This document shows positions 1,259-36,951 of a stretch of DNA of 64,000 nucleotides, piece by piece. The translations under genes were made by a program, and so were the position numbers. The stretch is taken from positions 1 through 64,000 of IMG/VR virus record IMGVR_UViG_3300006923_000013; one strand, written 5' to 3'. The notes below the pieces were generated by a model. The model searched no databases. It was not told where the DNA came from and saw only the letters and a list, made by a program, of their open reading frames with translations. Within the stretch, counting starts at the first letter, position 1, and each line of letters opens with the position of its first letter. Source of the stretch: a virus.

Positions 1259-1270
1259 TAGAGATATACT

Positions 1271-1572: not shown

Positions 1573-1721
1573 TGGAAATAAAAAAAACAACAAGCTCTAC
1601 ACGTAGGGCAGTACGAAATACACTAAAAGCAAAAAAATACATACTTCCATTATGGATTACAATGAATATACTTTCTTTAGGGTTACTCGTAACAATGATA
1701 TTCAAATTTATCACATCTTAA
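1572..1721 (+). CDS. Small membrane protein (49 aa), not in ORF track
   Basis: TAATG overlap with the upstream gene; basic N-terminus then hydrophobic ILPLWITMNILSLGLLVTMIFKFI. Confidence 0.65.
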   Translation: MEIKKTTSSTRRAVRNTLKAKKYILPLWITMNILSLGLLVTMIFKFITS

Positions 1722-1730
1722 TTAAACATA

Positions 1731-2105: not shown

Positions 2106-2107
2106 AA

Positions 2108-2521
2108 ATGGAATCAGAGATAACAGCTTCACAACTTGCAGCTTTAAGTAAGAAACTTTACAATGTAAAACAATTAAAAGAATCTCATCAAAAACTTACA
2201 CAAATTGCAGAAAATGTAATACATAATGAATATCCATTTTCCTTAGAATTAAAGGTTAAAGTAACTATACCCTCTATAGATGAGGAATCGAGTAAACAAA
2301 AAACAGCAGAGGATCTTTTAAATATGTTAACAGATAAAGAAGGGGAAGAAGACTTTATGTCCCGTCTGAATAATATTAAAAAAGATAAACCTGAGGTTAT
2401 AAAGGAAATAGCTGTAAATCTGCAAAACATATCTGATAAAACATTTTTTGCAGTTTTAGAAAGATTAGTAAAAGATTTAAACGTTGAAATAAAAAACACA
2501 TCTAAAACAATTAAACTATGA
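2108..2521 (+). CDS. Hypothetical protein (137 aa)
   Basis: ORF track; ATGA overlap with the next gene. Confidence 0.7.
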   Translation: MESEITASQLAALSKKLYNVKQLKESHQKLTQIAENVIHNEYPFSLELKVKVTIPSIDEESSKQKTAEDLLNMLTDKEGEEDFMSRLNNIKKDKPEVIKEIAVNLQNISDKTFFAVLERLVKDLNVEIKNTSKTIKL

Positions 2522-2940
2522 AAACAATATTATTATTTACACTCGCACAAATGTGGCCTTGGGGTTGGTTAACTTTTTTATGTGTATTAGGAACTGCAGT
2601 ATGTGTAATCTTACTTGCTAAAAATGAAAATAAGAAAGCTGAACAACACATGAATAGTGCCGTAGATAAAATCAATAAACAACATGGAATATGTGAAGTT
2701 GTAGAGGATATAAGAGAGATTATATCTACAGAAAAAGCAGCCGCTTGGTATTTTACACATTTACATAATAGTCTTTCATATAGAGCACGCTATGCTCTAA
2801 GTCAGATAGCTGTAACCAATTTAGAAGAATTTATGGATCTAACCTCTGCAGATTTAGAAGGTATCTATAGATGTGGGCCAGTTACACGAAGAGAAATACT
2901 TGATATGGTAGCATGTGTATCTACAGAAGATAAACTTTAA
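2518..2940 (+). CDS. Membrane-anchored protein with a C-terminal RNA polymerase alpha-CTD-like (HhH) domain
   Basis: N-terminal hydrophobic helix WGWLTFLCVLGTAVCVILLA. C-terminal LSYRARYALSQIAVTNLEEFMDLTSADLEGIYRCGPVTRREILDMV aligns by eye with alpha-CTD [46 protein letters not shown]. Confidence 0.7.
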   Translation: MKTILLFTLAQMWPWGWLTFLCVLGTAVCVILLAKNENKKAEQHMNSAVDKINKQHGICEVVEDIREIISTEKAAAWYFTHLHNSLSYRARYALSQIAVTNLEEFMDLTSADLEGIYRCGPVTRREILDMVACVSTEDKL

Positions 2941-2962
2941 ATTTTATTTAATTTTAAATAGT

Positions 2963-3000
2963 AAGAAGTAGTTAGAGACTTTCTCTTTCTACTTCTTTTT
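2963..3000 (+). terminator. Probable intrinsic terminator
   Basis: Stem AAGAAGTAG...CTACTTCTT with an inner AGAG/CTCT pairing, followed by a T run; intergenic. Confidence 0.6.
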
Positions 3001-3023
3001 ACTTTAACTAATACTTATTATAA

Positions 3024-3554
3024 ATGGAACAAGAAAATAAAAAATTAACATATGAATCTTTTCAATTAAGATTATTCAAAAAAATATTTGAAAATATAGA
3101 AGAAAATAAATTTGTATCTTCTTTAGCTGTATTAACAGAAAAAGAAACTACAAAACTTATTCCTCTTCCTGGTAGTTTATTTGAAGATAAAGAAGATATG
3201 GATCTTACACTGCGTAAAATATCAAAACTTGGAAATGCAAAAATGTGCTGTTTTGTTAGTATGTGCGGCATATCAAAAGTAGATAAAGATGAAAATCCTG
3301 AAGCATTTGAAAAACTTAAAAATCTAAATGTAGAAAAGTTAACCTCAGAAGATATAAAACTGTTACAGGATTCAGCAACTATAGAAGAAGGATTGATTTT
3401 TAACTTTGAAAGTATAGGAGAACCAAGTAAAGTATATGCATTTGTAAGGAATAAGGAAAAAAGTACATTTGAACTTAAAGAAACCTTTTCATCTGATGAT
3501 AAGGAATTCGAGCAAGAAAGAACAGGTAGATTTATGAATATCTTAGAACAATGA
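3024..3554 (+). CDS. Hypothetical protein (176 aa), translationally coupled to the DNA polymerase gene
   Basis: ORF track; ATGA overlap with polA. Confidence 0.75.
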   Translation: MEQENKKLTYESFQLRLFKKIFENIEENKFVSSLAVLTEKETTKLIPLPGSLFEDKEDMDLTLRKISKLGNAKMCCFVSMCGISKVDKDENPEAFEKLKNLNVEKLTSEDIKLLQDSATIEEGLIFNFESIGEPSKVYAFVRNKEKSTFELKETFSSDDKEFEQERTGRFMNILEQ

Positions 3555-5482
3555 TCTATCTTGTAAGTACTACACAAGCATTATTCAGATCTCCTGCTAA
3601 CGGTGTAGATATTATACCCTGTACTATCCAAGATGTAGTAGATTACTGTAAACATAAGAAAGTACTTGGAGTAGATACTGAGACAGAAGGATTAGATTTC
3701 ACTGTACATAATATGATATTATTTCAGATCGGAGATAAGGAAAATCAATATCTTATAGACACTCGTAACACAAGTATAGAACCATTACGTGATGTATTAG
3801 AAAGTAAAAGCATACTTAAAGTACTTCAAAATGCAAAGTTTGATTATAAAATGATCCTACAAGGAGCTAATATCAAGCTGGAAAATGTATATGATACTAT
3901 GCTTGTTGAGAAAGTAATTCATTGCGGTAAATTCGGACTAAGTTATAGTTTGAAGACACTATGTAGTAAATACCTGGCATTGGATCTAAGTAAAAATGTA
4001 ACCAATTCTTTTACAGAATTATATGGCGCTCCATTTTCATACTCTCAATTAAAGTATGCTGCAGATGATATAGCTCCTCTTTTAGATATTCGAGATTTAC
4101 AACTGCCTCAACTTTCTGCAGAGGATCTGGAAACTGTAGCAGAATTAGAGAATAAGGTCATATTGGCATTTGGAGATATGGAGTATAATGGAATGCCTCT
4201 AAATACTATACTATGGAAAGTACTGGCTACTAAAGCTAAAACTGAAGCAGAGCTTTTACAAGCACGTTTAGATCTATATGTATTAAGAGCACCAATTCTT
4301 TCCAGAAGATATAAACTTAAGTATGTGCAAAGTAATCTATTTACTGATATACAACACATACGAAAGGTTAATATAAATTGGGCAAGTCCTATGCAGGTAT
4401 TAGAGGTCTTTAGAAATCTTGTGCCTAGTTTAGAAACTGTAAATGCAAAAGAGCTTATACTACACTCTAAACCTTTTATACTCATTAAAGAATATATAAA
4501 GTATAAAGAAAAAATGAAACTTGCTACAAGTTATGGAGAAAAGTTTTTAACGCATGTTAAGAATACAGGTAACATACATACACAGTTCAATACTATACTT
4601 AATACTGGTAGATCCGCATCTAAATTGCCTAATATGCAACAGATACCTTCTCCAGATGAGTATAGAAATTGCTTTCAAGATGTAAATGACCCTGAAGCTG
4701 TATTTGTATCGGGAGACTATGCATCACAAGAGTTATGTATAATTGCCTATGGTTCTAAAGATCCAGTATGGCTTGCAGCTCTTAAGAATGGAGAAGATCT
4801 ACACTCAGTATGTGCAGATCTGGTCTATGGTATAAGTTGGGGACAGGCAGCAGAAGCTAATTGTGCCTATATGGTAGATAAATCCAAATGTGATTGCCCT
4901 AAGCATAAAAAGCTCAGAACGAATGTAAAGACCATTAATTTTGGTCTGGCATACGGAATGGGCCCTAATAAGCTTGCAGAGAATTTGAATATATCCACAC
5001 AGGAAGCTAAGGATCTTATACAAGCCTATTTTAAGGCGTTTCCTGCTATTAAAGCATTTCTTGAGGCTCTTGGTAACTATGGTTTAAATAGAGGCTTTAT
5101 ACGTACATTCTTACCCTTTAAACGGATAAGACACTTTGATGGGTGGCACAACGGAATACAGAATTTAAGATATAAGGATAATAAAACGTCTGAACTACTT
5201 GGAACAATAGAACGTGCAAGTAAAAATACTCCTATTCAAGGTACTGGAGCAGATATGACCAAGCATGCAATGGTCCTCGTACGAGAAGACATCGCAAAAT
5301 TTAATAGACCTGTTAAGCTTGTAATGGCTGTACACGATCAGATTGATACTATAACTACGAGAGCCTATGCGCCAGAGTGGAAGATTAGACTACAAAAACT
5401 GATGGAAGATGCAGCTTTATTAAGTATTCCTACGGGAGAATTGAAAGTAGATGTACATATTAGTGCGAAATGGAAAAAATAA
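3551..5482 (+). CDS. polA: DNA polymerase family A with 3'-5' exonuclease, no 5' nuclease domain
   Basis: Exo motifs GVDTET, QNAKFD, YAADD; TGRSASKLPNMQQIP; motif A DYASQEL; motif B RTNVKTINFGLAYG; NTPIQGTGAD; motif C VHDQ. Confidence 0.97.
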   Translation: MIYLVSTTQALFRSPANGVDIIPCTIQDVVDYCKHKKVLGVDTETEGLDFTVHNMILFQIGDKENQYLIDTRNTSIEPLRDVLESKSILKVLQNAKFDYKMILQGANIKLENVYDTMLVEKVIHCGKFGLSYSLKTLCSKYLALDLSKNVTNSFTELYGAPFSYSQLKYAADDIAPLLDIRDLQLPQLSAEDLETVAELENKVILAFGDMEYNGMPLNTILWKVLATKAKTEAELLQARLDLYVLRAPILSRRYKLKYVQSNLFTDIQHIRKVNINWASPMQVLEVFRNLVPSLETVNAKELILHSKPFILIKEYIKYKEKMKLATSYGEKFLTHVKNTGNIHTQFNTILNTGRSASKLPNMQQIPSPDEYRNCFQDVNDPEAVFVSGDYASQELCIIAYGSKDPVWLAALKNGEDLHSVCADLVYGISWGQAAEANCAYMVDKSKCDCPKHKKLRTNVKTINFGLAYGMGPNKLAENLNISTQEAKDLIQAYFKAFPAIKAFLEALGNYGLNRGFIRTFLPFKRIRHFDGWHNGIQNLRYKDNKTSELLGTIERASKNTPIQGTGADMTKHAMVLVREDIAKFNRPVKLVMAVHDQIDTITTRAYAPEWKIRLQKLMEDAALLSIPTGELKVDVHISAKWKK

Positions 5483-22700: not shown

Positions 22701-23776
22701 ATATTACGAAATATAACAGCTCCACGTTTTTCAAGTGTAGTTTTGGCCTCATCTAGCCTCATTTGTATATATTCCTCCTTTGTTTTATCCTTTATGCCCA
22801 TCTGTTCGAGCATAACGTCATCTCCTTTATACTTCTTATTAAGCTGTGCGAACTCTTTACCATAAGAGGTTTCTGCCCACGCTTTCATCATATCTCCACC
22901 TGTAGAAAACTTATTTACTACATAGTCTTTAGCATAGCGTTCATACTTAGCAGCAATTTCCTTATGAACATCACTTGCAGTTTGTAGATGCATTCTTACT
23001 TTATCGGGTACTATTAATTTACCCTCTTGAATTTGTGCAAGAGTTGAGTCGATGTCACTAAATGCTGTGATATAATAATAAATATCCTGAGCTGCGGCTG
23101 CAGTAAGTTTTTTAGTTCCTTCATCTTCTGCTACACCCATGTTAAGAATTAGCATATCCATTTCTTCAAGAATAGCTGCAGTTTGTTCCATTGCATTTGC
23201 TGCATAGTTCAATAGCCTTTCATCTTGTACTGCCTCTCCTATTGAATCTAATTCCTTTTCTAAATCCTTTTTTTGAGCTTTTAGCTGCCCACTAAGCAGT
23301 TCCTTTGATTTTTGGCGAGAGAGTGTCTTTATTCTCTTTTCCAAAGCACTTGCTGCTTTACGTAGTATTGCAACTTTTATAGAAGATGTAGCTTTAAATT
23401 GACTGGTATTCCAAGGTTTAGTAGCAAGTATTTTACCACTGGCAAAAGACCAAACATCTGCCATATACGGCTCTCCATATATGATCTGTCCGTTCTCATC
23501 GTCTCCAAGGTTATACAATCTAGGAGATTCTTGAGGTGTATCTAATTTATTTACAAGCCTGTATTCATTAGCGGGTAAGATTTTCCAATTACCATACGTA
23601 TTCGTAAACTCTTGACTGCGTGCTAATTCCCAGAGGCTGTCTTTAATAAGTTCCCCCTGGGTTCCATCAGGCTTATCGTATCGTTGATCCCCAAACTGTT
23701 CCTCTAATTTTTCGTAGAGCTTGCTGGGAATTTCTTTACCTGCTTTGTCTACTTTAAAAACTTTACATGTGCTCAT
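19787..23776 (-). CDS. Large virion cargo/ejection protein (1329 aa)
   Basis: Last gene of the crAss-like ejection cluster after the RNAP; helical; C-terminal hydrophobic IGLALFVLPAAGASMAALA; single Cys at residue 4. Confidence 0.8.
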   Translation of the reverse strand: MSTCKVFKVDKAGKEIPSKLYEKLEEQFGDQRYDKPDGTQGELIKDSLWELARSQEFTNTYGNWKILPANEYRLVNKLDTPQESPRLYNLGDDENGQIIYGEPYMADVWSFASGKILATKPWNTSQFKATSSIKVAILRKAASALEKRIKTLSRQKSKELLSGQLKAQKKDLEKELDSIGEAVQDERLLNYAANAMEQTAAILEEMDMLILNMGVAEDEGTKKLTAAAAQDIYYYITAFSDIDSTLAQIQEGKLIVPDKVRMHLQTASDVHKEIAAKYERYAKDYVVNKFSTGGDMMKAWAETSYGKEFAQLNKKYKGDDVMLEQMGIKDKTKEEYIQMRLDEAKTTLEKRGAVIFRNMLEATNQDISFVQRWFLNAQDVNDDVLRALQMEISKVEDEIRLKWIDEVRALHGTFKELQEHQMKKDKNMTREEFYSFMLEKDEIGKPTGYFVSKYHSNWSRDRKKKQDEIYSQEGVSEAAKTRQWIKWKKENIKYNYTLPLRYIIPKGAKKEEKDKIIREATAKRDAKVEALKKEHEAALAASVPKRDAANNITRSGDRGPLSLFEDKIAMIHRASHTQFEIPKKPEDHAKYLNPAYKKLAAYSKLEGGDNIYWKYYIRYMNQNTINDEGLPSNFRTMYKMPSIRKSLPERLEDVHKWMGFFPKLIGKNSLYSEIFQKWKEERTVYVKGEVSERGEESEEMDNLRSKRRKNIQDYASISTDEEGRERQYVPIHYRGQIEIEDLTMDLHGSLVKNTWVTLSYQKMTQLLPYAEMLVFFLQKRLNFTQKAGFKTVGRGSIGRNIDVSAKNSYNAAKDLIEHRMFGVTKLDPGYEIGGLSVTKLLGLVQSYMSTTMLSFNVHSSIANANLANILFTIEGAAGEHFGKKDVAAAYEAYARDMPRMIADLTEPLDQHSKVNVVGLIYDPTNNFDHRQFDYAHNSKTAHLLHGFSLHFLNASVEHHVQSLTMIAYLKSTKILDENDMYLDAKNEPTEDRNKGISLWDSYRIKEGKVVYNHSIRYVEKMIGETTKKMPYYSRDDRAAFHRRGTVAIQRINQQLHGAYSERNAMPFQRLVLGSIMIVFKKYLVPGFRARLGGAAQTVRDYTPKVGKYSKGTLTDGEYIEHSSELPTATPTRMYDPMLGTYRSLGTYSTAYKFIGKVISDLELMKWQVVSANWAELSRNEKGNVIKAVSEIGLALFVLPAAGASMAALAKGQDEDDDFVNWYLGSFMAYRLHSELLQYISPMEAGRILKNPAITITFIERIIDFLSQGKTDTFRALSGEGMEIYKSGSRKGDRKISKKIYDLVPFYKHYTRNRYMKDIVSFYAETGRAR

Positions 23777-26700
23777 TTACAGTTATCTTTAGTATGCGGA
23801 TCGTCATTAAGGTCGTCCTTACTTATATATTTTTCAGGTCTAATTTGGGCCCTCATTCCTCTTTCTGTTCTAACGAGTTTTAACACAGGGCTCTTATTAA
23901 ATACTGTATTGTTTATATGTCCTATATAATTAGCACTTTTTGCATGGTCGTGTTTAAATCCATAAAAGTATTTACCTTTTTTTTGTAGCTTCTTATCTTT
24001 TCCTTTTCCTAATGTACCCTTGTTTAAATATTTGTTACCAATTGCAAAGATCTGAGGAACAGTGAAGTGCAAAAATACAAAATCGCTTTCTTGTGCAGGT
24101 GAAAACTCTCTGTTTTCATTATCATGAGGTATAAAGTTTCTATGGTCATAGTAATCTTTATCCCGCGATAGTGCATCTGAAAACTTTGCTTCAAATATAG
24201 ATACCCAAGAAGCATGTCCTTGTTCTGTTACCACTTCATGTTCTGTATTTAAAAAGAAATCAATTAATAACATCTGCGACTGTTCCTCTTTAGTAAATTT
24301 ATCTAAGCGTTTATTAAAGTTACCTTTTAGGCTCACAAACTTTTCTACAAGATGAGGATGAGTAGTAATAATTGCATTTACAACTATTTTTTCATCCTTT
24401 TCAGGTCTAAATACATATATAGGTATAAAATTAGGAATTTCCTTTTTAACATCGGTCTCTAACCACTGTACAACTTCTTGAATGGTATCAAAATGTCTCT
24501 TACTTTCAGGAATAACGAAATCCAGATCATGTAAGGTTTCAGCTTTATCCCTATATACATTTCCCTGACTTCTTAGAGCAAGGGATCCTACGAGTACGGC
24601 ATTTAATTTACTAATTGCCGTTTCCATCACTTCAAATGCTTTTGGAAATTTAGTGGCTCCTTCTTCAAAAGTTTTAAGTGTAAAGTTTTTATCCTTAGCC
24701 CTTCCATATGTTTCCATGAATTTTTTATCCCCAGAAAGAACTTGCTGTGCAATCTCATCTGCCATAATTTCTACTGGGATACTTGCTATGGATTTTGCTA
24801 TTTTAAGTATAGCTTCATACGCCTCATAAGCTAATTTAAGAAATTTACCTTTTGGAACTCGTTTTTCATTAGCGTAAATAATCGCCTCACCTATTATCTG
24901 CCCAATAGCTTCTTTTTTTATTTTCTCCATATTAGGAGAACCATCTATATTTTGATATAGCCTGTTTTTTGCATAAGCACGCTTAATGGCTCCAAATTTG
25001 CCCCAAGACGTTATATTCTGCATAAGAGGTTTAATCAGATCACTCTTAACGCCTACAAGGTCTACAAGCATATGACTGAACTCTTCAGGCATTACCATCT
25101 TAGTTCTATCTTCTTTAGCTATATCTATAACTTTACGAAGTGTGTGTGCTACACCTAAAACTCCTTCTCCATACCGCTCTTCCATATCCTGCATAGAACG
25201 TTCTGTAACAATTACTCCATATTCTTCTAAAAAGTCTGCTAAATAATTATCTAATTTTTTATCTGCTTTCTCTCCTAAAGTCTGCATTTTAGCAACTATA
25301 TCCTTATGTCCTTCTAATAACGAACTGAATCTATATGCCATAAGTACATTAAAAGGTTTGCCTTTGTATATAAGAGCATTACGTTGCAGCCAACGCTCAA
25401 TTATATCAATTTCATCTTGACTGAATCCATTTTCAGCTAAAAATTCCTTATCGCTGGGTTTTAATTCTTTACCATCAAATACCGATTGTAAGTCTGCAGC
25501 ATTCTCCATAAGAGTTGCAGCTCGTTCTACTTCATTAAGAAATGAGTTTTCTTCTAAATGAAAAAGTGTATTCACATCTGTAGTCTCATTTGGAGATGTA
25601 GATAACTCCACTTCTACTAATATGCCCGCTTCTTTAAGTTTTTTAGTAGCAAAGGTTGTACCTACAATAACATTTTTTTGTAGTGCTTTATCTAAAAGAA
25701 TAATATTATTAGTATTTATATTAGATCCTTTTCCCTCTCTTAAGAAAGGCTCAAATAAGGTTTTACCTCTATCGTTTTTTCCTAACTTGTTTACTACAAC
25801 ATATACAGGGAGCTGCTTTGAATTCCATCCTGCATGTCTGTATAATCTTTCATTCACTGTTACATACTTGGTAACACGAGTAACCTCTTCTCTTCCATCT
25901 ATCAATTCTGTTTTAACAAGAGACGTATCTCCTGTAGCAAATCCGTAGACCTCAAGTCCTAACTCACTAGTAACTTTTTCTGCAAATTTATCGGATATTT
26001 CAGGTACTAAATCTGTATTATGTGAATTATTTCTAAAGAAGATATCTAATTCTGCTCTTGAAAATAACCCTGGGTCAGTAGTATCTGAAACTACAGCACT
26101 ACCTCCTTTGCCGTCTGATACCTCAATTGTGTTTGCTTCTTCATTAAATCGGTCAAATAATTCATCCTCTAATGAAAGGGGCATTAGTTCATGAAAACTA
26201 AAGAGTTTATTTGTATACCCACTTACAATAAAGGAATATAGAGCTAAATCTTTAGCAAATGCTTGTACTTTTTTATCTTCATGTAAGTAGAGTTGTTCCC
26301 AAGCTTCTGTAAGAAGGTCTTTACTTACTCCGTCTTTTTCTTGTGTATTTGGAACAGTTATACTTCCTATTTCATCCTTAATATTAGAGATATTACCTTT
26401 AGATGCAAGTAAATATTTAATAAGTCTGTTTTCTTTTATAGGAGACTTACTAGAAGTCTGCCAGAATGCAAGCTGATTCACAATATTGTTATCACTTATT
26501 ACAAGTTCCTGGAATTTCTCTTGTGTAAGACTTTTTGCCTTCTTAGCAAGATACATACTGTATAAATCTCTATAGGCCCTTCTTAGCTTTTCTGGATTTT
26601 TACTGAAATACTCATTATTGGACATTTCTTCTATCTGCCATAATGCTGATCCAAATCCAGCACTTCCAATATTAAAAGAGTCTTTAAATAACGAGAGCAT

Positions 26701-29700
26701 TAAAGATGTAGAGTTATCTCTATATTTAGCAAGCATTGTGTTTTCAAATCTAGCTGCTATACCCCGTAATCCTGTATCTTGTAATGCATCACTAAGTTTA
26801 CGTTCAGAGACCAATGAGTTTACCATTCCTCCACCTGCACCCTCCACATCTTGTTTAGATGCTCCAATTGCAGAACTAAGTACTGATGCCCGTTGGCGTA
26901 AGTGAAAAAATGTTTCCACTACAGTAAGTTGATGTATAATATGCTCAATATCAGTAGCTTCTTTATTCTTGATCCCTTCTTCTAATGTAGATATATTTAA
27001 AAGGTTATCAAGTTTTAATGTGTTACTTCCAAATTTAGAATTTATATTCTTTATTTCATCTTTAAATGCTTTCTCTGCGTTTATATACGACATACCCTCT
27101 CCCTCCATTGTCTCTATATACTTCTTCTTATAATCACGAAGTACTGCTTCCTTATCTGTTAAAGTCTTTTTAGTTTTTTCATCCCATATCCGTTTAGTAT
27201 TACCCGCACGTGTGTATTGAGCATATTCTACCCATTCTTTAAGTATAGGCTGAGACATGAACATATCAGTCCATTCTGGGTTCGCCCCGAGGCGATCTAA
27301 CAGAAATACAGTATTTGCTGTGAACTCATTATTGTTTAGATAAAAGATATAAGGATCTTTTGCTATATCCACATATGCATTAAGTCTACCTGAAATGATA
27401 TTAGTGATCGTACCTTTTGCAGTATTGTAAATTTGAGAAAGATCAGAGAATCCTGATTTGGTTTTATTACCAATTCCTAAATTTTCTGAAAAATACAATG
27501 GAGATTCTTCGCTCACGTTATCTGAAAGAGAGAACTGAGAAATCGCATGGTCAACCAATTGACGTGCAGTAAGTGCTACTCCTGTTTTACCTCCTACAAA
27601 TTGCTGCTTTACATCTACTTGAAACGAAGCTGAAAACCACTCAAGATCTCCTTTGACAGACATGGCGTCTGTCACAAACTTTATAAAATCTTCAAGTTTA
27701 TCTGCAGCAATAAGCGCTTCACCCCTTGCACGCATTTTGTGATCAAAAACTGTAGTATAATTCTCAAAGAATCTAACTTTTGCAGCTCTGAATTTTACTC
27801 CAATGGAATCCAAAGGAGTAATTAGGTCTATATATGTTTTAGGATCACTTATAACAGCATCGTATATCTCAAGTTTTCTATTTTGAAGTGCTTTCTTACG
27901 AATTGCTCTTTTTTTCGAATAGTATATCTCTGTAGCCTTTTCTTTTGAAGTCGTTCCTTTTTTATTCTTTTCTTGTATCGCTTCTATTTGCTTTTCTGTT
28001 GGAGGTAATATAGGACCTTTCATAGATTCCTTATATTCTATATAATAAGGTTTACCTGAATTTTTATCCACTCCAAAATTAGGAAGCATAATGAACATCT
28101 TATCGATGTCGAAATCCGAACCTGTCTTAGCTGTGATATCATCGTATGCTACTACCGCATCTCCCATAGATTTCGGTAAAAACCCTACAACTTCAAATGC
28201 ATCGATAGAGCTCATACCTTGATTTGGTATTCTATATGCTATACCTCTAAGTAATCGCTTATCAGAGATATATTTCTGAATCTCTGCAGACGACATCTTT
28301 TCGTAATTAGGAATAAGATCTCTAAACCAAGAAGGAAGCATAATTTGGGCCCGAGAGAACTTAACAAATTCGCCGCCCTTATTAACTTCAGATATACCAG
28401 GTTTCAAATCGTTAGGATTAGTAACCATTTCTATCTCTGCCTTTTCTGCATCAGTAAGACTTGACCAGCGTTTAGTACGCTTAAATCCGAAGTTACTCAA
28501 CTGAATATACGAGCCACCTGGCATTTTAAGCTTTACAGTACGTGCTGTAATGATAGATCCAATTAATTGGTCGATCTTATCTGCATATGGATGAGAGTGA
28601 AGAGGGCGTAAGAATCCTCTCTTATCTGCTCTAAGTTCCAATGAATCTAACAGCTTTCTGGGAGTTGATTCTTTCTTACTGAACTCTTTATAGATTAACT
28701 CATGTAATTTAGTGTAATCTGTAATCTGTGGATCACCTTCATCATTAGTAGTTATACCAAATTCTTCATAAAGTTTATCCTTGCCCATATTCGACAGTTC
28801 TCTGTCTATATCATGTGCCTGTTTAATTAGATTTTGACCCGTAACTTTTTTTCCATCTAAAGTATACTGTGCATTTATCCTAATATTAGCAAGTAGATTA
28901 CGTTTAACCTGAGACCCCTCAAGAGACTCAGAAGCTGTGTGAGGACGCAAGTCCTGCTGAAGCTTCCAATACTCATTACGAAGAGTCATTACATTAAGCT
29001 TCAGTTTTCCTTCACCTGTAAAATGCTTAGGAGATTGGGCGCCGACTTTAATACCTGATTCGAAGATCACCTCATCGATAGGATTAGTTTTATCTGTCAT
29101 TGTAGCATACAGAGTTTCTAACTTATCTGTACCCTTTACAACTTGTGGAAATAATACTGCTTGGGAATACTTTATATACGTAGGAACCATAAGTCCTTTA
29201 TAAGGACGTAATTCATAATGCATACCTTTTAAAGGCATTGCAGCTATAAATTTCATATCCTTTGCTGTTCCTGCTCCTGCAAGTAATCTTTTATAGATCT
29301 CATCTATTTTACTATTGTCCCAACGGCCTAACCTTTTCATAATGAATGCCCAACGCTCAAGTGATATATAGCCCTGCCCATCAGCTTGGTTTACCTTACT
29401 ATAAGGTTTAAGAATGCGTTTAATATCTGCTTCTGAGAATCCCCATCCATGCTTTTTATTTGCGGCTTTATAGCTAGCTAAGTACTCTCCAAAATATGCA
29501 CTTGGTTCTTCTATATCCCGTAAAACTGCCATTTTGAAGAACTCTTCTCCGACAGCTAAATTTAGATCCTGACCTGGTGCAATAAGAGATGGCATTCTCT
29601 TAGAGAGCTCATCCATATTAAAATAGAAAGCAGGATTACCTGCATATACTTGCATTGCCTCTAAATTAGAAATAATGCTATTAAGACCAAATGCAGCTAT

Positions 29701-32700
29701 TGCGCGTCTGGTTCTTACATCCGCAGAGTGCACTATTTCTCCTGCTTCGTTTACTGTTTGCCCATCGAGGGTACTGAATGCACTGAATGTTTTTGTAGCT
29801 ATAGCATGATTCTTAAGTCCGCCATTCGGATTAGTTTGTATTGTAGAATACCTTAATGCTGTTCCTACTTCTGCTCTGATTCTATCATTTATGATATCTG
29901 TCATCTTAGACACGAATGCTGGCTTTTCAAGAAGATCCTTAATTACAGGATGAACTATGGTCTTTCCAACCTTAAACCCGATCTTTTGTAAAAACTCCTC
30001 ATCATTAAAAGAAGGAAATGTTACGAATTTAGTGCCGTTTGCATTTTCACGTAAAAGCTTTCCTGTCTTCTTATCCTCTCCCTTATAGTGATAATTTTCT
30101 ATAAGTTGCGAATCGGTAAGTGCGTGTTTTCCGAACAGTTGTAAATCAGCTTGATATATAGCTGCCATTTCGGTAACAGCATAGGTACTAAATATCTTAA
30201 GTATATGAGGAGGTATAATATAAGTATCTGTTTTTTTATTATACTCTATCATATTAATATCCGAAGGAGTTAAATATTCTACTCCTTTATATAGCATCCA
30301 AACTCCTTTATCTGCCATAGTTGCAGGGCTGTAAGTATGCTTTAAAGTCATATTTACTCGAAGTGTGTATTCGTCTGCGGGGTTCAAACCTTTATAGTCT
30401 GTTCCGTGATCGTTTCCTCCCTGTTTCTTGTAGGTATTGAAAGTTTTATATACTAACTTTTTACCTTTTTTCAACTGCTTCAGTAATTGCGATTGACCAT
30501 GATATGGACTTTTTAATAACTCATCTGCATAATAAGAAGACCTGTTCATTTGTAATGTACGCTTCTTGAAGAAATTATTCAGTGAGTATATCCAGTAAGT
30601 TTTACCTTCTGGACCCAGGATAGTAGTTTGACCAAAATCTTCTGTTACAACTGCCTCTCCTGCAGCAAGTTTCATTACAAAACTCTCTTTAAGCATATGA
30701 TTTTCTACGAAATCTACAGCTACATTTCCTTTATTTTTTCCCTTTCCTGCCAAAGTACCCATAGAATATGTAGAACCTGTTCCCATAAGTTTTGACATGC
30801 CACCTATAAATATCCTACGAGCAGTTTTAAATTCTGGAGAAATCAGGTTAAATGCCTGTTCTAATCCCTCTTCGCTCATTTCTATTCCTAAGTGCTCTAA
30901 AAATATACGTGTAGTATGAGAAGTAGACGCTGTAAGACCTTCATTACGTAAATCGAGCATAACTTGTAACCACATAGCACTGTTACGTGCGGCTACGTCT
31001 TTATTAGCTGTAATTACAAGATTCCCCTCTTTATCCTCTTTTTTGCTATATAAGGGCAACTCCTTATGATTCTCAAACCATCTATCTCGAATACGATATG
31101 CTTTACCTTGCTGTTGAGGGTCTATAAACTTATATAGTAAGCTCTTCTGTACCTGTCCTTTTACTTCGTAAACTAAATTCTGATACAGAACAGTTAAGAA
31201 ATTGCTATTTGATTTACTCATAGCATTAAAGAACTGTGTCCTTTCATTTATAGGTAACGCTTTTACACGAGTATATAAACTCTCAAATGTTCTATCTGAA
31301 ACCGATAAAGTCTCTAATTTGACCATCATCTGATCGTAAGAAGATATAGTTTTACCTTGTTCATTGGTATATGTAACAGTATCAGCTAATAAAGCCTCAA
31401 CTGTGTTCCACATATGCCCAGGATTAGCCATTACAGGCAATCCCGTGTCTACATTCGTAACTAGTTCACCGTTCTTATCAAATAGCGGTAAAAAGCTAAA
31501 GAATACCCTGGTAGTAGTAGTAGCATTTTGCTTACCACTGGTCTCAAACGGAGATTTAGATGCAGCCAAGACATCAGCGTTATCCTTTCTCGTTTCTTCG
31601 TTTTCTCTGATTCCTAATTGTTGTAATCTAAGTTCTGCATGTTCAACAAGGACATCTACTTCTCTTAGTAGTAGTTTTCTCGCATTCAAAAAGGGCTTTT
31701 CATTTTCTATAGTTTCTGCCCTTTTGACCTTAAATTCTAAATATGCTTTAAAGAAAGCATGTAATTTCTTACTCTCTTTCGCATTAGCTTCAAAACTCTC
31801 TATATCCTTGATATTATGAACTCCTCCTATTCCTCCTGCGTTATCTATATAGTGGTGTAAAGTAATATTAACTGTCTGCTCTACTGTACGGGGGTCTAAG
31901 GGAAGCCTCTCCATTGCTAAAGCATGTAAACCTTTTCCACTGCGCCACGCTTCTACTTTAGCCGATATAGGCTTAGTATTAGCGTAATACCCTGCAGACA
32001 TACGGTAGAACAGTAAGTCTGTGTGCATACGGGTTTTAGGATTCATCATATATCCGACTAAAGCCTTGATATACTTAAACCATCGTATTACCTTCTCTCC
32101 TACTCCTGCAGTTTCACCTGTAGTTTCCCAATATCTATACTCTTCAGCACGTATTTCAGAATAATAGATAGCCTCTGCTACTTCTTCGGTAATATCCTTA
32201 TGTTTAGATTGAATCTCTTTGATCATGGCTTTGGTAGGAACACCAAATTGCTGCCTGGTCTGAATATCTAATCCTCTACGTTGCTCTGGTGCAAGCCATA
32301 ATTCTTCAACAGCATGATAGGCTTCGTGGTACTCTGCGCCATGTACAGCCTGTTCAGATAAAGTAATCATACCCTTTCTAAATACACCGTATGCATATGC
32401 ACCTTTTCGTCCTAAGCTTATCAGGCTCTTTTGAATATTAACAGGAACAGTATCTCCAAGTACTCTCTTTAAGTATGCCCGAGCTTTAATCTCGTTGAAT
32501 TTCTCTTTAGGAGCTTTTTCCGAAGTGTCGTCCCCTACCTCTACTTCCATAGAAAGGTTTTCCATGTCATCGCCAAACTGGAAGTTATGACCCTCGTTTG
32601 TGGTTTCTTTTTTTGCTGCAGTTTTAGTATCTTCTTTCTTTTTTTCTTCCTTTTCTTCCCTACTCTTATTATGCACTTCAGTATTAAATATAAACTTACT

Positions 32701-35700
32701 TGCTGAATGTACAAGGTGTTTTGGTCTAAGTTGATCGTCTAATTTAGTGTCTGTACGCATAACATGCATATCTACATCCTCAGAATTGTTTTCTGTTAGA
32801 AAATGCTCATTATACTTATCATACTCATCTTCAAGGTATGTAACCCCTTGAAATACAATAGAACCCCGTTTCTTAAGGGACATTGTTTCCGAAGTGAATA
32901 TATCAAATATCGATTTATTTAATGCTGTTGAATGTACCTGACGTTTTTTGTTCGCTAAAGCCCACGCTATGAACTGCTCTTTGGTACTTTCCGTAAGTTG
33001 TACAAAGTCTCCAGCCTCACCGTCATAAAAATATGCTTGATTTTCTTCTATCACGAGAGCAGTATTTATGAACGGAGAAAACCCTTTTCCTGCTCCAAGA
33101 GTATAGTGCTGTTTTGCATACTCTCTAGACTCGAAAGAATATGTAAGCATTTCAAGGTATTGCAGAATTGACAACCCTGTATCTATTTCATTTCGCCAGT
33201 ACCTCGAAGACTTACTTCTTGCCTTTTTATAAAATTCAAGTATATCCAATAGATCAAAAACCTCATTCTCATTAAGCCCTCTTTGATTAAGCTTAACACT
33301 TTGCGGCTCTTCTGTAGCAGGATCAACTACCATCGCATAGACTACACCATTATTAGCCTTTGTACCTGTATCAAATCCTACAGTCGTACCTCCTCCAGTA
33401 ATTTCAAAGTCATTCTTAACTCCTAATACTACTGGACCATCTGGGAATAAAGATTTAATAGAGAAGTGCTCCCCTATATTTTCCTTTACTCCATCCCTAC
33501 TACGAAGCTCGTTCCAAAATGCCCTTACTTCTTGATATTTGGATATAGTACCAAATGCAGGTTCTCCTGCAACATACTGCTTGTATATTTTACGTCTAAG
33601 GAGCGCAGTAGCCTCTTTATTACTCTGATCTCCTGTGAGCCCGCTCTGCAAATTTACACTGTATTCAACTCCTGTTTTCGGATCCTTTATCCATACGTTT
33701 ATATGAAGCTTTGCAAGATCTCCGACTGGAGCATCTTTAGGAGGTGTAATTTTATTTCTATACTTATCTTTTATTATAGAGCTTGCGTACCAATACTTTG
33801 AATCGAAATCTATTTCGTATCTAACCTCTTTATTTTCAAAAAATATAGAGGGAAGAGAATTTATATACTTAAGAAAGAGATCCGTTATGTGTATTCCATT
33901 CCTTATAGATCCTATTAAGGATATAGGCTTTTTAGCATCTGTAAAACTTGGTTCGGGCTCAACTGCTTCTTCTTCAGTTGTATTTTCTTCTGTTTTAGGA
34001 CCTGAATTTCCATCTTGGTTATCGTGTTCTACCTTTTCTGCATTTTCAAATGAAGTGTTTACAGTTGGAACTACTTCAGGTTCTACAACTACTTCAGGCC
34101 CCACGTCTGCTTTTACTTCTCCTGTTTCTTCTGGCGCATGTTCCTCAGCAGTTTCTTCTGCGTTTTCGAATAGAGCATCATCTACTACAGGTATTACAGG
34201 TACTACAGGTTCGTCAAATTTAGAAAATAGATCATCTACATCATCGGACCCTTCCTCCTCCTCCTCCTTAGCCTTTTTAGCCTTTTCCGCTTCTTGCTCT
34301 TTCTTCTCATTTTTAGCATTCTGTTGCTTTCCATGAGAAGTAGCATTTTCAGCTTTAACTTCCTCAATTGGTACTATAAGTGTAATATTATCTCTTTCTA
34401 CTGGTACCTCTATTTCACCATTCCATACTCCATATGTAGCATTCCCTTCTTGATCTGTGGTTATTCTAAGATTTCCATGTTGTGCTTGCCCATTGGAATC
34501 TTTATATTCTACCAAAGCATTTTCTTCTAAACCTTCTTGATTTTGCTTAGCAATAGTAGGTTCTTTTTCCTTTACCTCTGGTCTCTCTAAAGTTTTACCA
34601 AAATCCTGTATAAATGGATTTGCCATGAGCGTTTCTCCATTTGACGCACTTTGTATCAACTCTCTGGTTACATCATTTTCCCGTTTAGATGCTTTGGCTG
34701 CAAATGCGGTATTATTAAGATCCTGTAGATCTTTATTTAGAGGAATACTTTTGGTCGTTGTATGTCCATGCTGTTCCAGCATAGTTTTGTACTGCTTTTC
34801 AAGTCCTGGTACAGCTTCTTTGTGCTCTGTAGCTTTTGTTCCCTTTAATATTTTTGTATAGTAATCCTCCTGTATCTTATTAATAGCAGCAAGACGCATA
34901 TCTGTAGTCCCAGGAAGAGCCTTAATACGCTTAAGCTTTGCTCTGGCTACATTCAATTCTGCCTTTAGAGCTATAAGTTCAGACATTCCCTGTTCCTTCT
35001 CCGTTGTAGGAGCTGGAAGACCTGCAATAACTTTTTGAATTTCTGACTCTGCATTGGAAATATCCTCTGCTAATCTTTCCCCTGTAGAGTAGTTACTGAT
35101 AAGGGCCCTAAATGCTGTGCTTTTATCTTCTACGCTTAACGATTTGAACTTCTCTTGATTTACATTACTATGGATTGCGGATGCAACGAGAACCATTTCT
35201 CTGGCTTTAGGCATATCCATCTTCTCTGCAATATCAGGAAAACTCTTCTCAATCTTATTGAGTAACTTATTAAGCTTTTTAGCTCCACCTTTCTCTTGAA
35301 GTTTAGTGAAAAGCCATTCAGACATTGCCTTATTATGCTCTGCATCCATATACCTATCGTATACCTGCTCTACAAAATCTTCTGCATCTGAACCATACAT
35401 TTGATTATCTACTACCTTCTGTGCAGTTCTTATGCCTAATTCTCCTACTGTTCTGGTACCTCCCATGACACCACCAAGCATTACTCCTGCATCAACAGAG
35501 GCTTTAAACTCTTTGGATTCCGTGCGTCCTCCTGCAACTCTATAGTCTAAAATCCTATTAATAGAGTTATTGACCATCCCTCCAGTAGTTTCTGCAGCCA
35601 GTCCCATACTGTTTACAATAGATTCGAGTCTTTCTAAATCATCATAGTCTCCTCTTAGATAACCATTCTTAATTAAGAACTGGTCTCCTTCTTCTCTTCC

Positions 35701-36951
35701 TTCCCAATAAGCTCCTACACCTACACCACCAGCTCCTGCACCTGCATAAGCAGCTCTTCTTCCCCATTTACCTGTAGGTAAGAAGTTTTTAAACTTACTC
35801 CAAGGTAAGAACCCTATACCTGCTTCAATCACATCTGTGGCAAATAGATTTTGATTCAGGTCATACACAGCCCCTACAGTAGACATCGTTTGTTTTTCAA
35901 GAGCAGCTAACTCTTCTTCTGGCATTTCCTTGCCATTATTAAGCAGTCTGTATTTTCTTTTCTCTCCCTCAATCTTAGATTCAAATGCTTCGTGCATTTC
36001 TGCGTAAGATTCTCTATTTCTAGAGTAAAGCTGTGCAGCAAGTGCTCCGCCGAATCCTACAGCGAATCCAATAGTACCTCCAACTGTTACTCCACCTGCA
36101 GCTCCTGGTCCTGACCATATAGTCGCACCAAGTCCTACTGTAGCCCCTACAAGTGCTGTAGCCTTTCCTGCAATATAAGGAGCAGCCATACTCGCCCCCA
36201 TTGCTTGTATTTCAGACATAGTTCCACCTAAATGGTGTGCAAGCTCCATCCAACTGTCAGGCCAAGCTCCTGGATTTGCTACATCCTGATCAATCCTATG
36301 TTGACCATATTTTCCTAAATAGTCAGATGCAGCCTTATGTTCTATTTCGTTTTCTTTTATATCTTGCTCATAATCAGCAATATCATCATCGATCTCTTGT
36401 AAAGCATCGAGCTGATCTTCAGTTGGTACTCCTCCTGAATTTTTAATATCTTCTTCGATTATGTTCTTTCTATTAGTAGCCTCAAGGATCTCTCCTTTAG
36501 TAGCACTTATCTGAATAGCATCTATATTCTGCTGAAGAGCATTCCATACATTACGTATTCCACTCTTTTCTAAGATCTCTTCTTTAGTACTTACAACCAG
36601 TGCATCCTCAGGGTTAAAACGAGGATCACTGTTTAAAAGCTTTCTATCTTCTCCTCCTTTATTTATATACTTAAGTAACTCTGATTTATAGCGTTGCTGA
36701 AGATACCCCGCTTTATCGGCTGTATAAGCATCCTGCTCTTCGAAAGAACGTGGGTCTTCTGGTCCATAAGGATTTATGGGATTCTCAAAAGGAAGCTCAG
36801 TATTTGGAGGGATTGGAGTTGTTGCTGTGCCTTGCTTATTTTGTAAAGGCTTATTCTGAAGTTCAGAGCGTAAGCTTTCGCTTTGCTCTACTTCCTTATT
36901 TTCAAACTGCTCTACATACTCTTCAATAGGCCTGTGTTGTTTAGCGCTCAT
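23773..36951 (-). CDS. Giant virion-packaged RNA polymerase polyprotein (4392 aa): N-terminal membrane segments, zincin, two-barrel RNAP, second zincin-like domain, C-terminal nucleotidyltransferase
   Basis: Catalytic KTGSDFDIDK (~28100-28130) with YRIPNQ and DGQGY motifs as in crAss-like vRNAPs; HEAYH (~32314-32328); EEFSH (~25072-25086); GSLAL...HDLDF (~24515-24590). Confidence 0.92.
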   Translation of the reverse strand: MSAKQHRPIEEYVEQFENKEVEQSESLRSELQNKPLQNKQGTATTPIPPNTELPFENPINPYGPEDPRSFEEQDAYTADKAGYLQQRYKSELLKYINKGGEDRKLLNSDPRFNPEDALVVSTKEEILEKSGIRNVWNALQQNIDAIQISATKGEILEATNRKNIIEEDIKNSGGVPTEDQLDALQEIDDDIADYEQDIKENEIEHKAASDYLGKYGQHRIDQDVANPGAWPDSWMELAHHLGGTMSEIQAMGASMAAPYIAGKATALVGATVGLGATIWSGPGAAGGVTVGGTIGFAVGFGGALAAQLYSRNRESYAEMHEAFESKIEGEKRKYRLLNNGKEMPEEELAALEKQTMSTVGAVYDLNQNLFATDVIEAGIGFLPWSKFKNFLPTGKWGRRAAYAGAGAGGVGVGAYWEGREEGDQFLIKNGYLRGDYDDLERLESIVNSMGLAAETTGGMVNNSINRILDYRVAGGRTESKEFKASVDAGVMLGGVMGGTRTVGELGIRTAQKVVDNQMYGSDAEDFVEQVYDRYMDAEHNKAMSEWLFTKLQEKGGAKKLNKLLNKIEKSFPDIAEKMDMPKAREMVLVASAIHSNVNQEKFKSLSVEDKSTAFRALISNYSTGERLAEDISNAESEIQKVIAGLPAPTTEKEQGMSELIALKAELNVARAKLKRIKALPGTTDMRLAAINKIQEDYYTKILKGTKATEHKEAVPGLEKQYKTMLEQHGHTTTKSIPLNKDLQDLNNTAFAAKASKRENDVTRELIQSASNGETLMANPFIQDFGKTLERPEVKEKEPTIAKQNQEGLEENALVEYKDSNGQAQHGNLRITTDQEGNATYGVWNGEIEVPVERDNITLIVPIEEVKAENATSHGKQQNAKNEKKEQEAEKAKKAKEEEEEGSDDVDDLFSKFDEPVVPVIPVVDDALFENAEETAEEHAPEETGEVKADVGPEVVVEPEVVPTVNTSFENAEKVEHDNQDGNSGPKTEENTTEEEAVEPEPSFTDAKKPISLIGSIRNGIHITDLFLKYINSLPSIFFENKEVRYEIDFDSKYWYASSIIKDKYRNKITPPKDAPVGDLAKLHINVWIKDPKTGVEYSVNLQSGLTGDQSNKEATALLRRKIYKQYVAGEPAFGTISKYQEVRAFWNELRSRDGVKENIGEHFSIKSLFPDGPVVLGVKNDFEITGGGTTVGFDTGTKANNGVVYAMVVDPATEEPQSVKLNQRGLNENEVFDLLDILEFYKKARSKSSRYWRNEIDTGLSILQYLEMLTYSFESREYAKQHYTLGAGKGFSPFINTALVIEENQAYFYDGEAGDFVQLTESTKEQFIAWALANKKRQVHSTALNKSIFDIFTSETMSLKKRGSIVFQGVTYLEDEYDKYNEHFLTENNSEDVDMHVMRTDTKLDDQLRPKHLVHSASKFIFNTEVHNKSREEKEEKKKEDTKTAAKKETTNEGHNFQFGDDMENLSMEVEVGDDTSEKAPKEKFNEIKARAYLKRVLGDTVPVNIQKSLISLGRKGAYAYGVFRKGMITLSEQAVHGAEYHEAYHAVEELWLAPEQRRGLDIQTRQQFGVPTKAMIKEIQSKHKDITEEVAEAIYYSEIRAEEYRYWETTGETAGVGEKVIRWFKYIKALVGYMMNPKTRMHTDLLFYRMSAGYYANTKPISAKVEAWRSGKGLHALAMERLPLDPRTVEQTVNITLHHYIDNAGGIGGVHNIKDIESFEANAKESKKLHAFFKAYLEFKVKRAETIENEKPFLNARKLLLREVDVLVEHAELRLQQLGIRENEETRKDNADVLAASKSPFETSGKQNATTTTRVFFSFLPLFDKNGELVTNVDTGLPVMANPGHMWNTVEALLADTVTYTNEQGKTISSYDQMMVKLETLSVSDRTFESLYTRVKALPINERTQFFNAMSKSNSNFLTVLYQNLVYEVKGQVQKSLLYKFIDPQQQGKAYRIRDRWFENHKELPLYSKKEDKEGNLVITANKDVAARNSAMWLQVMLDLRNEGLTASTSHTTRIFLEHLGIEMSEEGLEQAFNLISPEFKTARRIFIGGMSKLMGTGSTYSMGTLAGKGKNKGNVAVDFVENHMLKESFVMKLAAGEAVVTEDFGQTTILGPEGKTYWIYSLNNFFKKRTLQMNRSSYYADELLKSPYHGQSQLLKQLKKGKKLVYKTFNTYKKQGGNDHGTDYKGLNPADEYTLRVNMTLKHTYSPATMADKGVWMLYKGVEYLTPSDINMIEYNKKTDTYIIPPHILKIFSTYAVTEMAAIYQADLQLFGKHALTDSQLIENYHYKGEDKKTGKLLRENANGTKFVTFPSFNDEEFLQKIGFKVGKTIVHPVIKDLLEKPAFVSKMTDIINDRIRAEVGTALRYSTIQTNPNGGLKNHAIATKTFSAFSTLDGQTVNEAGEIVHSADVRTRRAIAAFGLNSIISNLEAMQVYAGNPAFYFNMDELSKRMPSLIAPGQDLNLAVGEEFFKMAVLRDIEEPSAYFGEYLASYKAANKKHGWGFSEADIKRILKPYSKVNQADGQGYISLERWAFIMKRLGRWDNSKIDEIYKRLLAGAGTAKDMKFIAAMPLKGMHYELRPYKGLMVPTYIKYSQAVLFPQVVKGTDKLETLYATMTDKTNPIDEVIFESGIKVGAQSPKHFTGEGKLKLNVMTLRNEYWKLQQDLRPHTASESLEGSQVKRNLLANIRINAQYTLDGKKVTGQNLIKQAHDIDRELSNMGKDKLYEEFGITTNDEGDPQITDYTKLHELIYKEFSKKESTPRKLLDSLELRADKRGFLRPLHSHPYADKIDQLIGSIITARTVKLKMPGGSYIQLSNFGFKRTKRWSSLTDAEKAEIEMVTNPNDLKPGISEVNKGGEFVKFSRAQIMLPSWFRDLIPNYEKMSSAEIQKYISDKRLLRGIAYRIPNQGMSSIDAFEVVGFLPKSMGDAVVAYDDITAKTGSDFDIDKMFIMLPNFGVDKNSGKPYYIEYKESMKGPILPPTEKQIEAIQEKNKKGTTSKEKATEIYYSKKRAIRKKALQNRKLEIYDAVISDPKTYIDLITPLDSIGVKFRAAKVRFFENYTTVFDHKMRARGEALIAADKLEDFIKFVTDAMSVKGDLEWFSASFQVDVKQQFVGGKTGVALTARQLVDHAISQFSLSDNVSEESPLYFSENLGIGNKTKSGFSDLSQIYNTAKGTITNIISGRLNAYVDIAKDPYIFYLNNNEFTANTVFLLDRLGANPEWTDMFMSQPILKEWVEYAQYTRAGNTKRIWDEKTKKTLTDKEAVLRDYKKKYIETMEGEGMSYINAEKAFKDEIKNINSKFGSNTLKLDNLLNISTLEEGIKNKEATDIEHIIHQLTVVETFFHLRQRASVLSSAIGASKQDVEGAGGGMVNSLVSERKLSDALQDTGLRGIAARFENTMLAKYRDNSTSLMLSLFKDSFNIGSAGFGSALWQIEEMSNNEYFSKNPEKLRRAYRDLYSMYLAKKAKSLTQEKFQELVISDNNIVNQLAFWQTSSKSPIKENRLIKYLLASKGNISNIKDEIGSITVPNTQEKDGVSKDLLTEAWEQLYLHEDKKVQAFAKDLALYSFIVSGYTNKLFSFHELMPLSLEDELFDRFNEEANTIEVSDGKGGSAVVSDTTDPGLFSRAELDIFFRNNSHNTDLVPEISDKFAEKVTSELGLEVYGFATGDTSLVKTELIDGREEVTRVTKYVTVNERLYRHAGWNSKQLPVYVVVNKLGKNDRGKTLFEPFLREGKGSNINTNNIILLDKALQKNVIVGTTFATKKLKEAGILVEVELSTSPNETTDVNTLFHLEENSFLNEVERAATLMENAADLQSVFDGKELKPSDKEFLAENGFSQDEIDIIERWLQRNALIYKGKPFNVLMAYRFSSLLEGHKDIVAKMQTLGEKADKKLDNYLADFLEEYGVIVTERSMQDMEERYGEGVLGVAHTLRKVIDIAKEDRTKMVMPEEFSHMLVDLVGVKSDLIKPLMQNITSWGKFGAIKRAYAKNRLYQNIDGSPNMEKIKKEAIGQIIGEAIIYANEKRVPKGKFLKLAYEAYEAILKIAKSIASIPVEIMADEIAQQVLSGDKKFMETYGRAKDKNFTLKTFEEGATKFPKAFEVMETAISKLNAVLVGSLALRSQGNVYRDKAETLHDLDFVIPESKRHFDTIQEVVQWLETDVKKEIPNFIPIYVFRPEKDEKIVVNAIITTHPHLVEKFVSLKGNFNKRLDKFTKEEQSQMLLIDFFLNTEHEVVTEQGHASWVSIFEAKFSDALSRDKDYYDHRNFIPHDNENREFSPAQESDFVFLHFTVPQIFAIGNKYLNKGTLGKGKDKKLQKKGKYFYGFKHDHAKSANYIGHINNTVFNKSPVLKLVRTERGMRAQIRPEKYISKDDLNDDPHTKDNCK

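Follow-up and report, generated by a model that had tools for sequence, protein, structure and literature searches.

In the present study, we analyzed a window of 64,000 nucleotides, corresponding to positions 1 to 64,000 of the IMG/VR virus record IMGVR_UViG_3300006923_000013, and found that a giant minus-strand open reading frame (ORF) of this marine crAss-like phage, which was predicted to encode a virion RNA polymerase (vRNAP) polyprotein of 4392 amino acids (aa), carries near its C-terminus a domain (aa 4097-4281) that is very probably an active nucleotidyltransferase (NTase) of the Pol-beta fold. The NTase is preceded by a helical partner domain, hereafter referred to as U. The explanation that best accounts for these findings is that the U-NTase cassette contains a competent Pol-beta NTase, is delivered by the virion, and acts on the ends of RNA or tRNA, and we assign to it a probability of roughly 0.55. 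The positions of the features are listed in Table 1.

An initial annotation of the window had proposed an AbiEii/MenT-like NTase at 24050-24700 based on the strings G-S, HDLDF, LLIDFF, IFEAK, and RDKDYYD. All of these strings were found in the minus-strand frame 23773-36951, and the proposed span covers the catalytic core, which we placed at 24109-24663 with N-terminal helices extending up to 24774. The occurrence and conservation of these motifs lie far beyond chance. Among 148 near-complete instances of the domain, which are cluster representatives from a library clustered at 50% identity and were retrieved by a profile search that used no pattern, the G-S pair, R4134, H-D-x-D, D4231, F4233, K4256, and R-x-K-D-x-x-D were 98-100% invariant, while R4127 (141/148) and G4130 (142/148) were conserved at 95-96%; the retention of G-S and both Asp residues of DxD in homologues had been set beforehand as a test of the assignment. 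The spacing between G-S and DxD is 18 residues. A DNA pattern that was also used for scanning required G-S-L-A-x-R-x-Q-G and H-D-x-D-F, and the invariance of these residues in loci L001-L016 is, thus, partly by construction; D4231, K4256, R4263, K4265, D4266, and D4269 were in no search pattern used.

The predicted structure, the second test set beforehand, was also that of a Pol-beta NTase. The AlphaFold2 model, which was built from an alignment of 11 homologous domain segments (A1), had a predicted local distance difference test (pLDDT) value of 85.7 and a predicted template modeling (pTM) score of 0.82. In this model, G-S follows the first strand (beta1, residues 60-62), HDxD lies on the strand at 83-89, D4231 on the strand at 169-177, and K4256 and RxKDxxD on two C-terminal helices (model residues 190-199 and 205-213 in the DSSP string). 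The N-terminal helices at aa 4060-4096 were modeled with lower pLDDT values (66-72) and probably pack on the U domain. In an exhaustive VIA-align search against 48,161 PDB representatives, all 50 of the best 50 rows were Pol-beta NTases, headed by the toxin MenT1 (8an4_A) with a value of 9.1 and a root-mean-square deviation of 3.4 A over 144/195 residues, followed by TUT1 (7.9), LnuA (7.7), TM1012 (7.7), JHP933 (7.4), TglT/MenT3 (7.1), and ANT(2'') (6.9), with MenT4 at 5.1. The alignment with MenT1 spans the C-terminal helices (model residues 41-222 against chain residues 2-165), and MenT1 was still the top match when the top 1000 chains from Foldseek were re-aligned. The characteristic elements of Pol-beta enzymes, namely, a G-[GS] turn after the first strand, a carboxylate pair on a strand, an Asp on a neighboring strand, and a superposable fold, are all present. 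A search of the BFVD viral structures gave no match at E<=1e-3.

Judging from the model, the nearest solved relatives of the NTase appear to be the DUF1814 toxins MenT1, MenT3, and JHP933. MenT toxins extend the 3' ends of tRNA with nucleotides (PMC10435456, PMC7450476). The active-site residues of MenT1 are T39, D41, D43, K137, and D152; the catalytic Lys and Asp of motifs III and IV are K137/D152 in MenT1 and K189/D211 in MenT3, and the site of auto-phosphorylation and regulation is T39 in MenT1 and S78 in MenT3 (PMC10435456). MenT1 (Rv0078A, 8AN4) and the other DUF1814 proteins (MenT3/TglT, MenT4, and JHP933) share with the phage domain a compact Pol-beta core with helices on its C-terminal side, the motif order of G-[SG], DxD, and a third acid, apparently continued by Lys and Asp on the C-terminal helices, and a place in phage-host conflict. 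They differ in that the phage domain has an invariant His (H4141, position -1) adjacent to the first Asp, the conserved R4127 and R4134, and the 18-residue spacing described above, and is seen by neither PF08843 nor PDB sequence profiles. Moreover, whereas these toxins are free proteins and belong to host defense systems, the phage NTase is a phage-encoded domain of a 4392-aa virion polyprotein, and no antitoxin gene is located beside it, the sole adjacent gene encoding a cargo-like protein of 1329 aa. TM1012 (2EWR), LnuA (4WH5), and ANT(2'')-Ia (4XJE, 5KQJ) are more distant in that they are stand-alone bacterial enzymes with 8-16% identity and, where known, small-molecule substrates.

The NTase appears to represent an undescribed family that is restricted to phage metagenomes. 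When 1.84 billion representative proteins were searched with the profile of A1, 511 clusters matched at E<=1e-3, of which 343 also passed E<=1e-10 and 71 passed E<=1e-30; among the matches listed, the carriers of the domain were up to 6022 aa long, with the median at 2109 aa, and the position of the domain was variable. A word-indexed search with the C-terminal region retrieved nine other giant proteins (3419-4849 aa, E 7.6e-55 to 3.6e-13), word-based searching found no stand-alone homologues of 173-553 aa, and scans with degenerate DNA patterns identified 12 loci in viral and metagenome collections. Nothing was found for the C-terminal 475 aa in Pfam, PADLOC, PHROGs, or PDB sequences. Pfam searches returned nothing above chance-level matches for 11 family members and nothing but one sub-threshold COR-A match for 15 other carriers, tblastn with three divergent family members gave zero matches among 50,697 GenBank phage records, and a Protein Atlas search returned unnamed viral clusters only. 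When 185,579 species genomes were scanned with the DNA pattern, only two contigs matched, both of them from metagenome-assembled genomes (MAGs) and both apparently of phage origin. Among the papers searched, none was found that links crAss-like vRNAPs to a MenT/AbiEii-like NTase. It is already known that giant "polyvalent" proteins injected by invading elements contain effector domains with enzymatic activity, Pol-beta NTases included; the present NTase family, its cassette partner U, and the vRNAP carrier have not been described before.

U and the NTase constitute a fixed two-domain cassette. A hidden Markov model (HMM) of U, which was iterated from aa 3830-4059 and describes a domain of approximately 215 aa, showed that, in 148/149 proteins, U ends directly upstream of the NTase, at a distance of less than 60 aa. 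The zincin ligand set, HExxH plus a downstream Glu, was not found in the window's copy of U, which has EEFSH and E4014 at the corresponding positions, and the first His of HExxH is present in 0/149 upstream copies; 78 of these have EExxH..E and the rest mostly xExxY..L. A second copy of U after the NTase (U-NTase-U) was observed in 35 family proteins, with P0132, P0156, P0045, L003, and L007 as examples, and these downstream paralogues have the first His in 18/35 cases and the full HExxH...E in 17/35. The model of U alone was weak (pLDDT 68.9), and fold searches with it gave no usable match. When U and the NTase were modeled as a complex, the score was 0.75, against 0.00 for the best of three controls, which supports binding (the mark for this score was reached by 58/80 solved complexes and 2/110 mismatched pairs); the contacts agreed by at least 97% between runs, and the pLDDT of the partner was at least 82. 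On the NTase chain, the predicted interface involves residues 1-22 and the C-terminal helices (191-222); on the U side, it involves the motif helix and the helices that follow it.

Copies in related vRNAPs provide a contrast to the invariance described above. In three relatives (P0164-P0166), which are 42-44% identical to the window ORF in the polymerase core, the scaffold after U is retained, while G-S is gone, HDLDF is replaced by [AS]NLDF, IDFF by V[ST]FNF, and the Lys by Gln, and RxKDxxD is gone. The catalytic residues are, thus, either all kept or all lost together, as would be anticipated for an active enzyme. We considered the possibility that the domain in the window is an inactive relic and rejected it because its residues are the invariant ones and the decayed copy elsewhere gives the contrast. 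In another relative (P0167), U is followed directly by the C-terminal tail with no NTase. The three decayed copies also contain a zincin-like HExxH insert (HEALH or HEYQH) after the former DxD strand and represent a natural pseudo-enzyme version of the domain.

Regarding the carrier, an open-frame check of the window showed that the 4392-aa ORF has no internal stop, and phmmer against PDB sequences matched its aa 1800-3246 to 6vr4_A, gp66 of phage phi14:2, with an E-value of 5.5e-119. Since homology to gp66 and the catalytic motif DFDID of vRNAPs are both present, the ORF appears to encode a crAss-like vRNAP of the gp66 type, although gp66 is approximately 2180-2194 residues in length. The fusion of the NTase to the vRNAP within one ORF, which the initial annotation had described, is, therefore, real, except that the domain does not occupy the extreme C-terminus, being followed by a tail of 111 aa. 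The NTase profile gave no match to the PDB sequence of gp66, which indicates that only some vRNAP lineages have the cassette as an accessory. The ORF as a whole has no Pfam or PHROG match. The source record is 85.8 kb in size with a CheckV completeness of 92%, and the genome, in which a plus-strand left arm is joined to a minus-strand block of giant genes, fits a crAss-like organization, with the vRNAP gene located in this minus-strand block of virion genes. No tRNA genes were found in the window. Since the homologues come from marine sources and phi14:2 infects Cellulophaga, a host among the marine Bacteroidota may be guessed.

In a survey of which crAss-like vRNAPs carry the domain, as had been proposed in the initial annotation and which we ran among the 120 nearest vRNAP homologues (vRNAP clusters number 1482 overall), the NTase was present in 13 and U in 21. 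One copy of the cassette was found in each of the five viral records examined. In the window's own genome (G000) and in G004, it is embedded in the vRNAP ORF, and it opens the ORF directly downstream of the vRNAP gene in G001 (96.3 kb, 100% complete; vRNAP gene, 2019 aa), G002 (82.9 kb, 99% complete; 2070 aa), and G003 (854 aa). An obligate role as part of the polymerase was rejected in consideration of the separate ORF that holds the cassette in these three contigs, and the link is to the junction between the vRNAP and cargo genes, not to the polymerase itself. The gene downstream of the window's vRNAP overlaps its stop codon (ATGA), and its 1329-aa product was homologous by phmmer to the C-terminal parts of the U-NTase proteins P0039, P0040, and P0074 as well as to those of the vRNAP giants P0186, P0188, P0196, P0199, and P0201; in P0186, P0188, and P0199, the homologous region directly follows U. 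These homologies point to a conserved order of vRNAP, U, an optional NTase, and a downstream cargo region. The ORF boundaries in this cargo array are fluid, with stops and starts at different places in different phages.

Taken together, these results suggest the following mechanism. The cassette would be translated within the vRNAP polyprotein, travel in the virion along with the polymerase, and be injected together with the DNA, ahead of all phage gene expression. The gp66 protein of phi14:2 is packaged in the virion, translocated into the host, and transcribes early genes (bioRxiv 10.1101/2020.03.07.982082), and the cassette may be expected to enter with the DNA because it is translated as part of a gp66 homologue; we consider its delivery with the vRNAP to be likely by this analogy. 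Inside the cell, the NTase would transfer nucleoside monophosphates from nucleoside triphosphates onto a 3'-OH, the most likely target being host RNA ends, including tRNA acceptor stems as with MenT toxins. This would alter host translation or counter a tRNA-directed defense. An RNA or tRNA 3' end is favored as the substrate because the closest solved relative extends tRNA 3' ends, and we regard this part as tentative, with odds slightly below even.

Several points weigh against this explanation. Regarding the AbiEii/MenT label, which is supported by the fold and the arrangement of motifs but not by a sequence match, PF08843 did not hit the protein at E<=10 or 11 family members at E<=1 and was also silent when all six frames of the genome were searched. 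The regulatory Ser/Thr at position -2 of the first Asp was also not found, this residue being L4140 in the window and L/V/I in aligned homologues, and the equation of K4256, D4266, and D4269 with K137/D152 of MenT1 is an assumption. The A1 profile gave only chance matches to PDB sequences, with no NTase among them, and Foldseek E-values were weak (5e-3 at best), with probabilities of 0.97-0.99 for JHP933 and MenT1. Structural neighbors of equal rank use other substrates, including antibiotics (LnuA and ANT(2'')) and RNA tails (terminal uridylyltransferases, TUTases), and the fold is, thus, compatible with more than one kind of substrate. The score of the U-NTase complex may reflect an intradomain contact, since the two partners are consecutive pieces of one chain and the first helix adjoins the cut. 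In addition, the blocking of tRNA would harm the translation of the phage itself, and the cassette may be removed by proteolysis before packaging.

The injected RNA-end enzyme may be specified further as an AbiEii/MenT toxin fold that has been turned into an offensive, virion-delivered enzyme, which would rewrite the 3' ends of host tRNA or RNA within seconds, with U as a built-in regulator or adaptor derived from a zincin and replacing the antitoxin; the outcome would be a selective shutdown of translation or the pre-emption of a tRNA-targeting defense. In this complete form, we regard the proposal as speculative and rather doubtful.

Among other explanations, the NTase may tail transcripts in cis by adding untemplated 3' nucleotides to early vRNAP transcripts, which would be stabilized or marked. 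This appears improbable. The cassette is in a different ORF from the vRNAP in G001, G002, and G003, and a vRNAP core was detectable by phmmer in only 23/157 representatives of the family. The matches to TUTases cover the catalytic core alone, without the nucleotide-recognition domain, and the C-terminal helices resemble those of the compact MenT/TM1012/ANT type.

The nucleotidylylation of a protein (AMPylation/NMPylation), which may be a host factor of defense or translation or else a phage protein injected alongside, seems no better placed. Iyer et al. (2017) put the Pol-beta NTases of polyvalent proteins among protein-modifying domains (PMC5512222), and vRNAP giants related to that of the window bear other Pfam domains of a protein-modifying or toxin-like kind, namely, ART-PolyVal, GNAT, and Zeta toxin. 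The polyvalent-protein NTases resemble the phage domain in being effector NTases inside giant multidomain proteins that are delivered with the DNA of an invading element; however, they belong to another family and context, being minimal (four strands and three helices), related to NTox45, fused to ArdC-N, and found in Firmicute conjugative elements (PMC5512222). The phage domain is larger, has the K...RxKDxxD helices, and is always paired with U, and crAss-like vRNAP and cargo proteins are not covered in that study. Neither ArdC nor any other Pfam domain was found in the 4392-aa ORF, the context of which is a crAss-like virion gene block. Moreover, the best structural neighbors are NTases of nucleic acids or small molecules, and no minimal MNT-type antitoxin NTase was included in the best 50 VIA-align rows.

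It is quite unlikely that the cassette is not an injected effector and instead acts late or in assembly, being cleaved before packaging, or serves as a structural spacer. The presence of HEAYH at aa 1542 makes polyprotein processing conceivable, the authors of the phi14:2 study left open the involvement of proteolysis in the activation of gp66 (bioRxiv 10.1101/2020.03.07.982082), and a sister lineage tolerates a catalytically dead copy. On the other hand, a structural role alone is difficult to reconcile with catalytic residues that are 98-100% invariant, the tail is kept with or without the NTase, so that the C-terminus is functionally retained, and the cassette is always inside the vRNAP/cargo gene array. 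An enzyme that modifies a metabolite or an antibiotic-like compound, or that makes or caps a second messenger against host immune signaling, is the least probable of these explanations, since structural neighbors of this type all rank below MenT1, the extra elements of CD-NTases and RelA/SpoT are absent from the phage domain, and the genomic context gives no hint of such a role.

Enzymes delivered by the virion set the terms of an infection because they are active before any phage gene is expressed, and few examples are known, such as Alt of T4 and the vRNAPs of N4 and crAss-like phages. Considering the injected RNA-end NTase proposed here, a fold that is best known from host toxins against phages (AbiEii and MenT) is here encoded by a phage, in a family that comprises at least 511 clusters and is named in no family library, and as part of a cassette that has been moved between ORFs, dropped, or left to decay among relatives. 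The identity of its substrate would reveal how crAss-like phages act on the host at the onset of infection and could uncover a new chemistry of counter-defense or takeover.

Table 1. Features of the vRNAP polyprotein gene and its neighbor in the 64,000-nucleotide window. Functional assignments are predictions.
Feature	Residues	Position in window	Strand	Evidence or conservation
Giant ORF, putative vRNAP polyprotein	1-4392	23773..36951	-	uninterrupted frame
Segment to which part of the tail aligns	1360-1414	32710-32874		phmmer
Canonical zincin motif HEAYH	1542-1546	32314-32328
crAss-type vRNAP core	1800-3246	27214..31554	-	phmmer vs PDB sequences
Catalytic motif DFDID of vRNAP	2946-2950	28102-28116
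Helical partner domain U	3837-4059	24775..25443	-	iterated HMM
Relic motif EEFSH of U	E3956-H3960	25072-25086	-	plus E4014
N-terminal helices of conserved domain ("IAxxVL" helix)	4060-4096	24664..24774	-	conserved in profile
Pol-beta-fold NTase core	4097-4281	24109..24663	-
Motif I, G-S in GSLALRSQG, right after strand beta1	G4122-S4123	24583..24588	-	G 147/148, S 148/148
HDLDF, putative metal-binding carboxylate pair on beta strand	H4141, D4142, D4144	24520..24531	-	H, D, D each 148/148
Putative third carboxylate (LLIDFF), later beta strand	D4231	24259..24261	-	D 147/148; F4233 148/148
C-terminal helices with IFEAK Lys (24184-24186) and RDKDYYD (24145-24165)	K4256; R4263, K4265, D4266, D4269	24145..24186	-	K4256 147/148, R4263 146/148, K4265 146/148, D4266 145/148, D4269 145/148
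C-terminal tail (111 aa), penultimate Cys4391	4282-4392	23776..24108	-	conserved in relatives
Downstream gene, ATGA overlap with vRNAP stop	1329 aa	19787..23776	-	no Pfam or PHROG match

The tail that follows the NTase is kept whether the relatives have an intact NTase (P0003-P0007), a decayed one (P0164-P0166), or none (P0167), and a Cys is invariably its last or penultimate residue (NCK, KCD, NCN, KC, or TCR). By phmmer, part of the tail aligned to aa 1360-1414 within the same polyprotein as well as to an N-terminal portion of P0005, and the tail could be a repeated module for packaging or ejection. The zincin motif HEAYH precedes the polymerase core within this polyprotein and may have a role in its processing.

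Related giant vRNAPs (P0164-P0270) contain many different effector domains in precomputed Pfam annotations, including a RecD-like helicase (PF13604, PF13245), an AlkB-type dioxygenase (PF13532), NADAR (PF08719), ART-PolyVal (PF18760), Zeta toxin/AAA_33 (PF06414, PF13671), GNAT (PF00583), PD-(D/E)xK (PF12705), and SAP (PF02037). The crAss-like vRNAP appears to be a general carrier for swappable effectors.

Of the two MAG contigs, one has the same sequence as the marine loci L006/L008. The other, locus L015 (JANWZV010000004.1, a 44.5-kb contig in a Candidatus Dojkabacteria MAG, match at 3023-3094), carries the complete U-NTase cassette in a reading frame that exceeds 2666 aa and runs off both ends of the 8-kb locus, and is probably either a phage contig in the bin of a bacterium of the candidate phyla radiation (CPR) or a phage of the Candidatus Dojkabacteria lineage.

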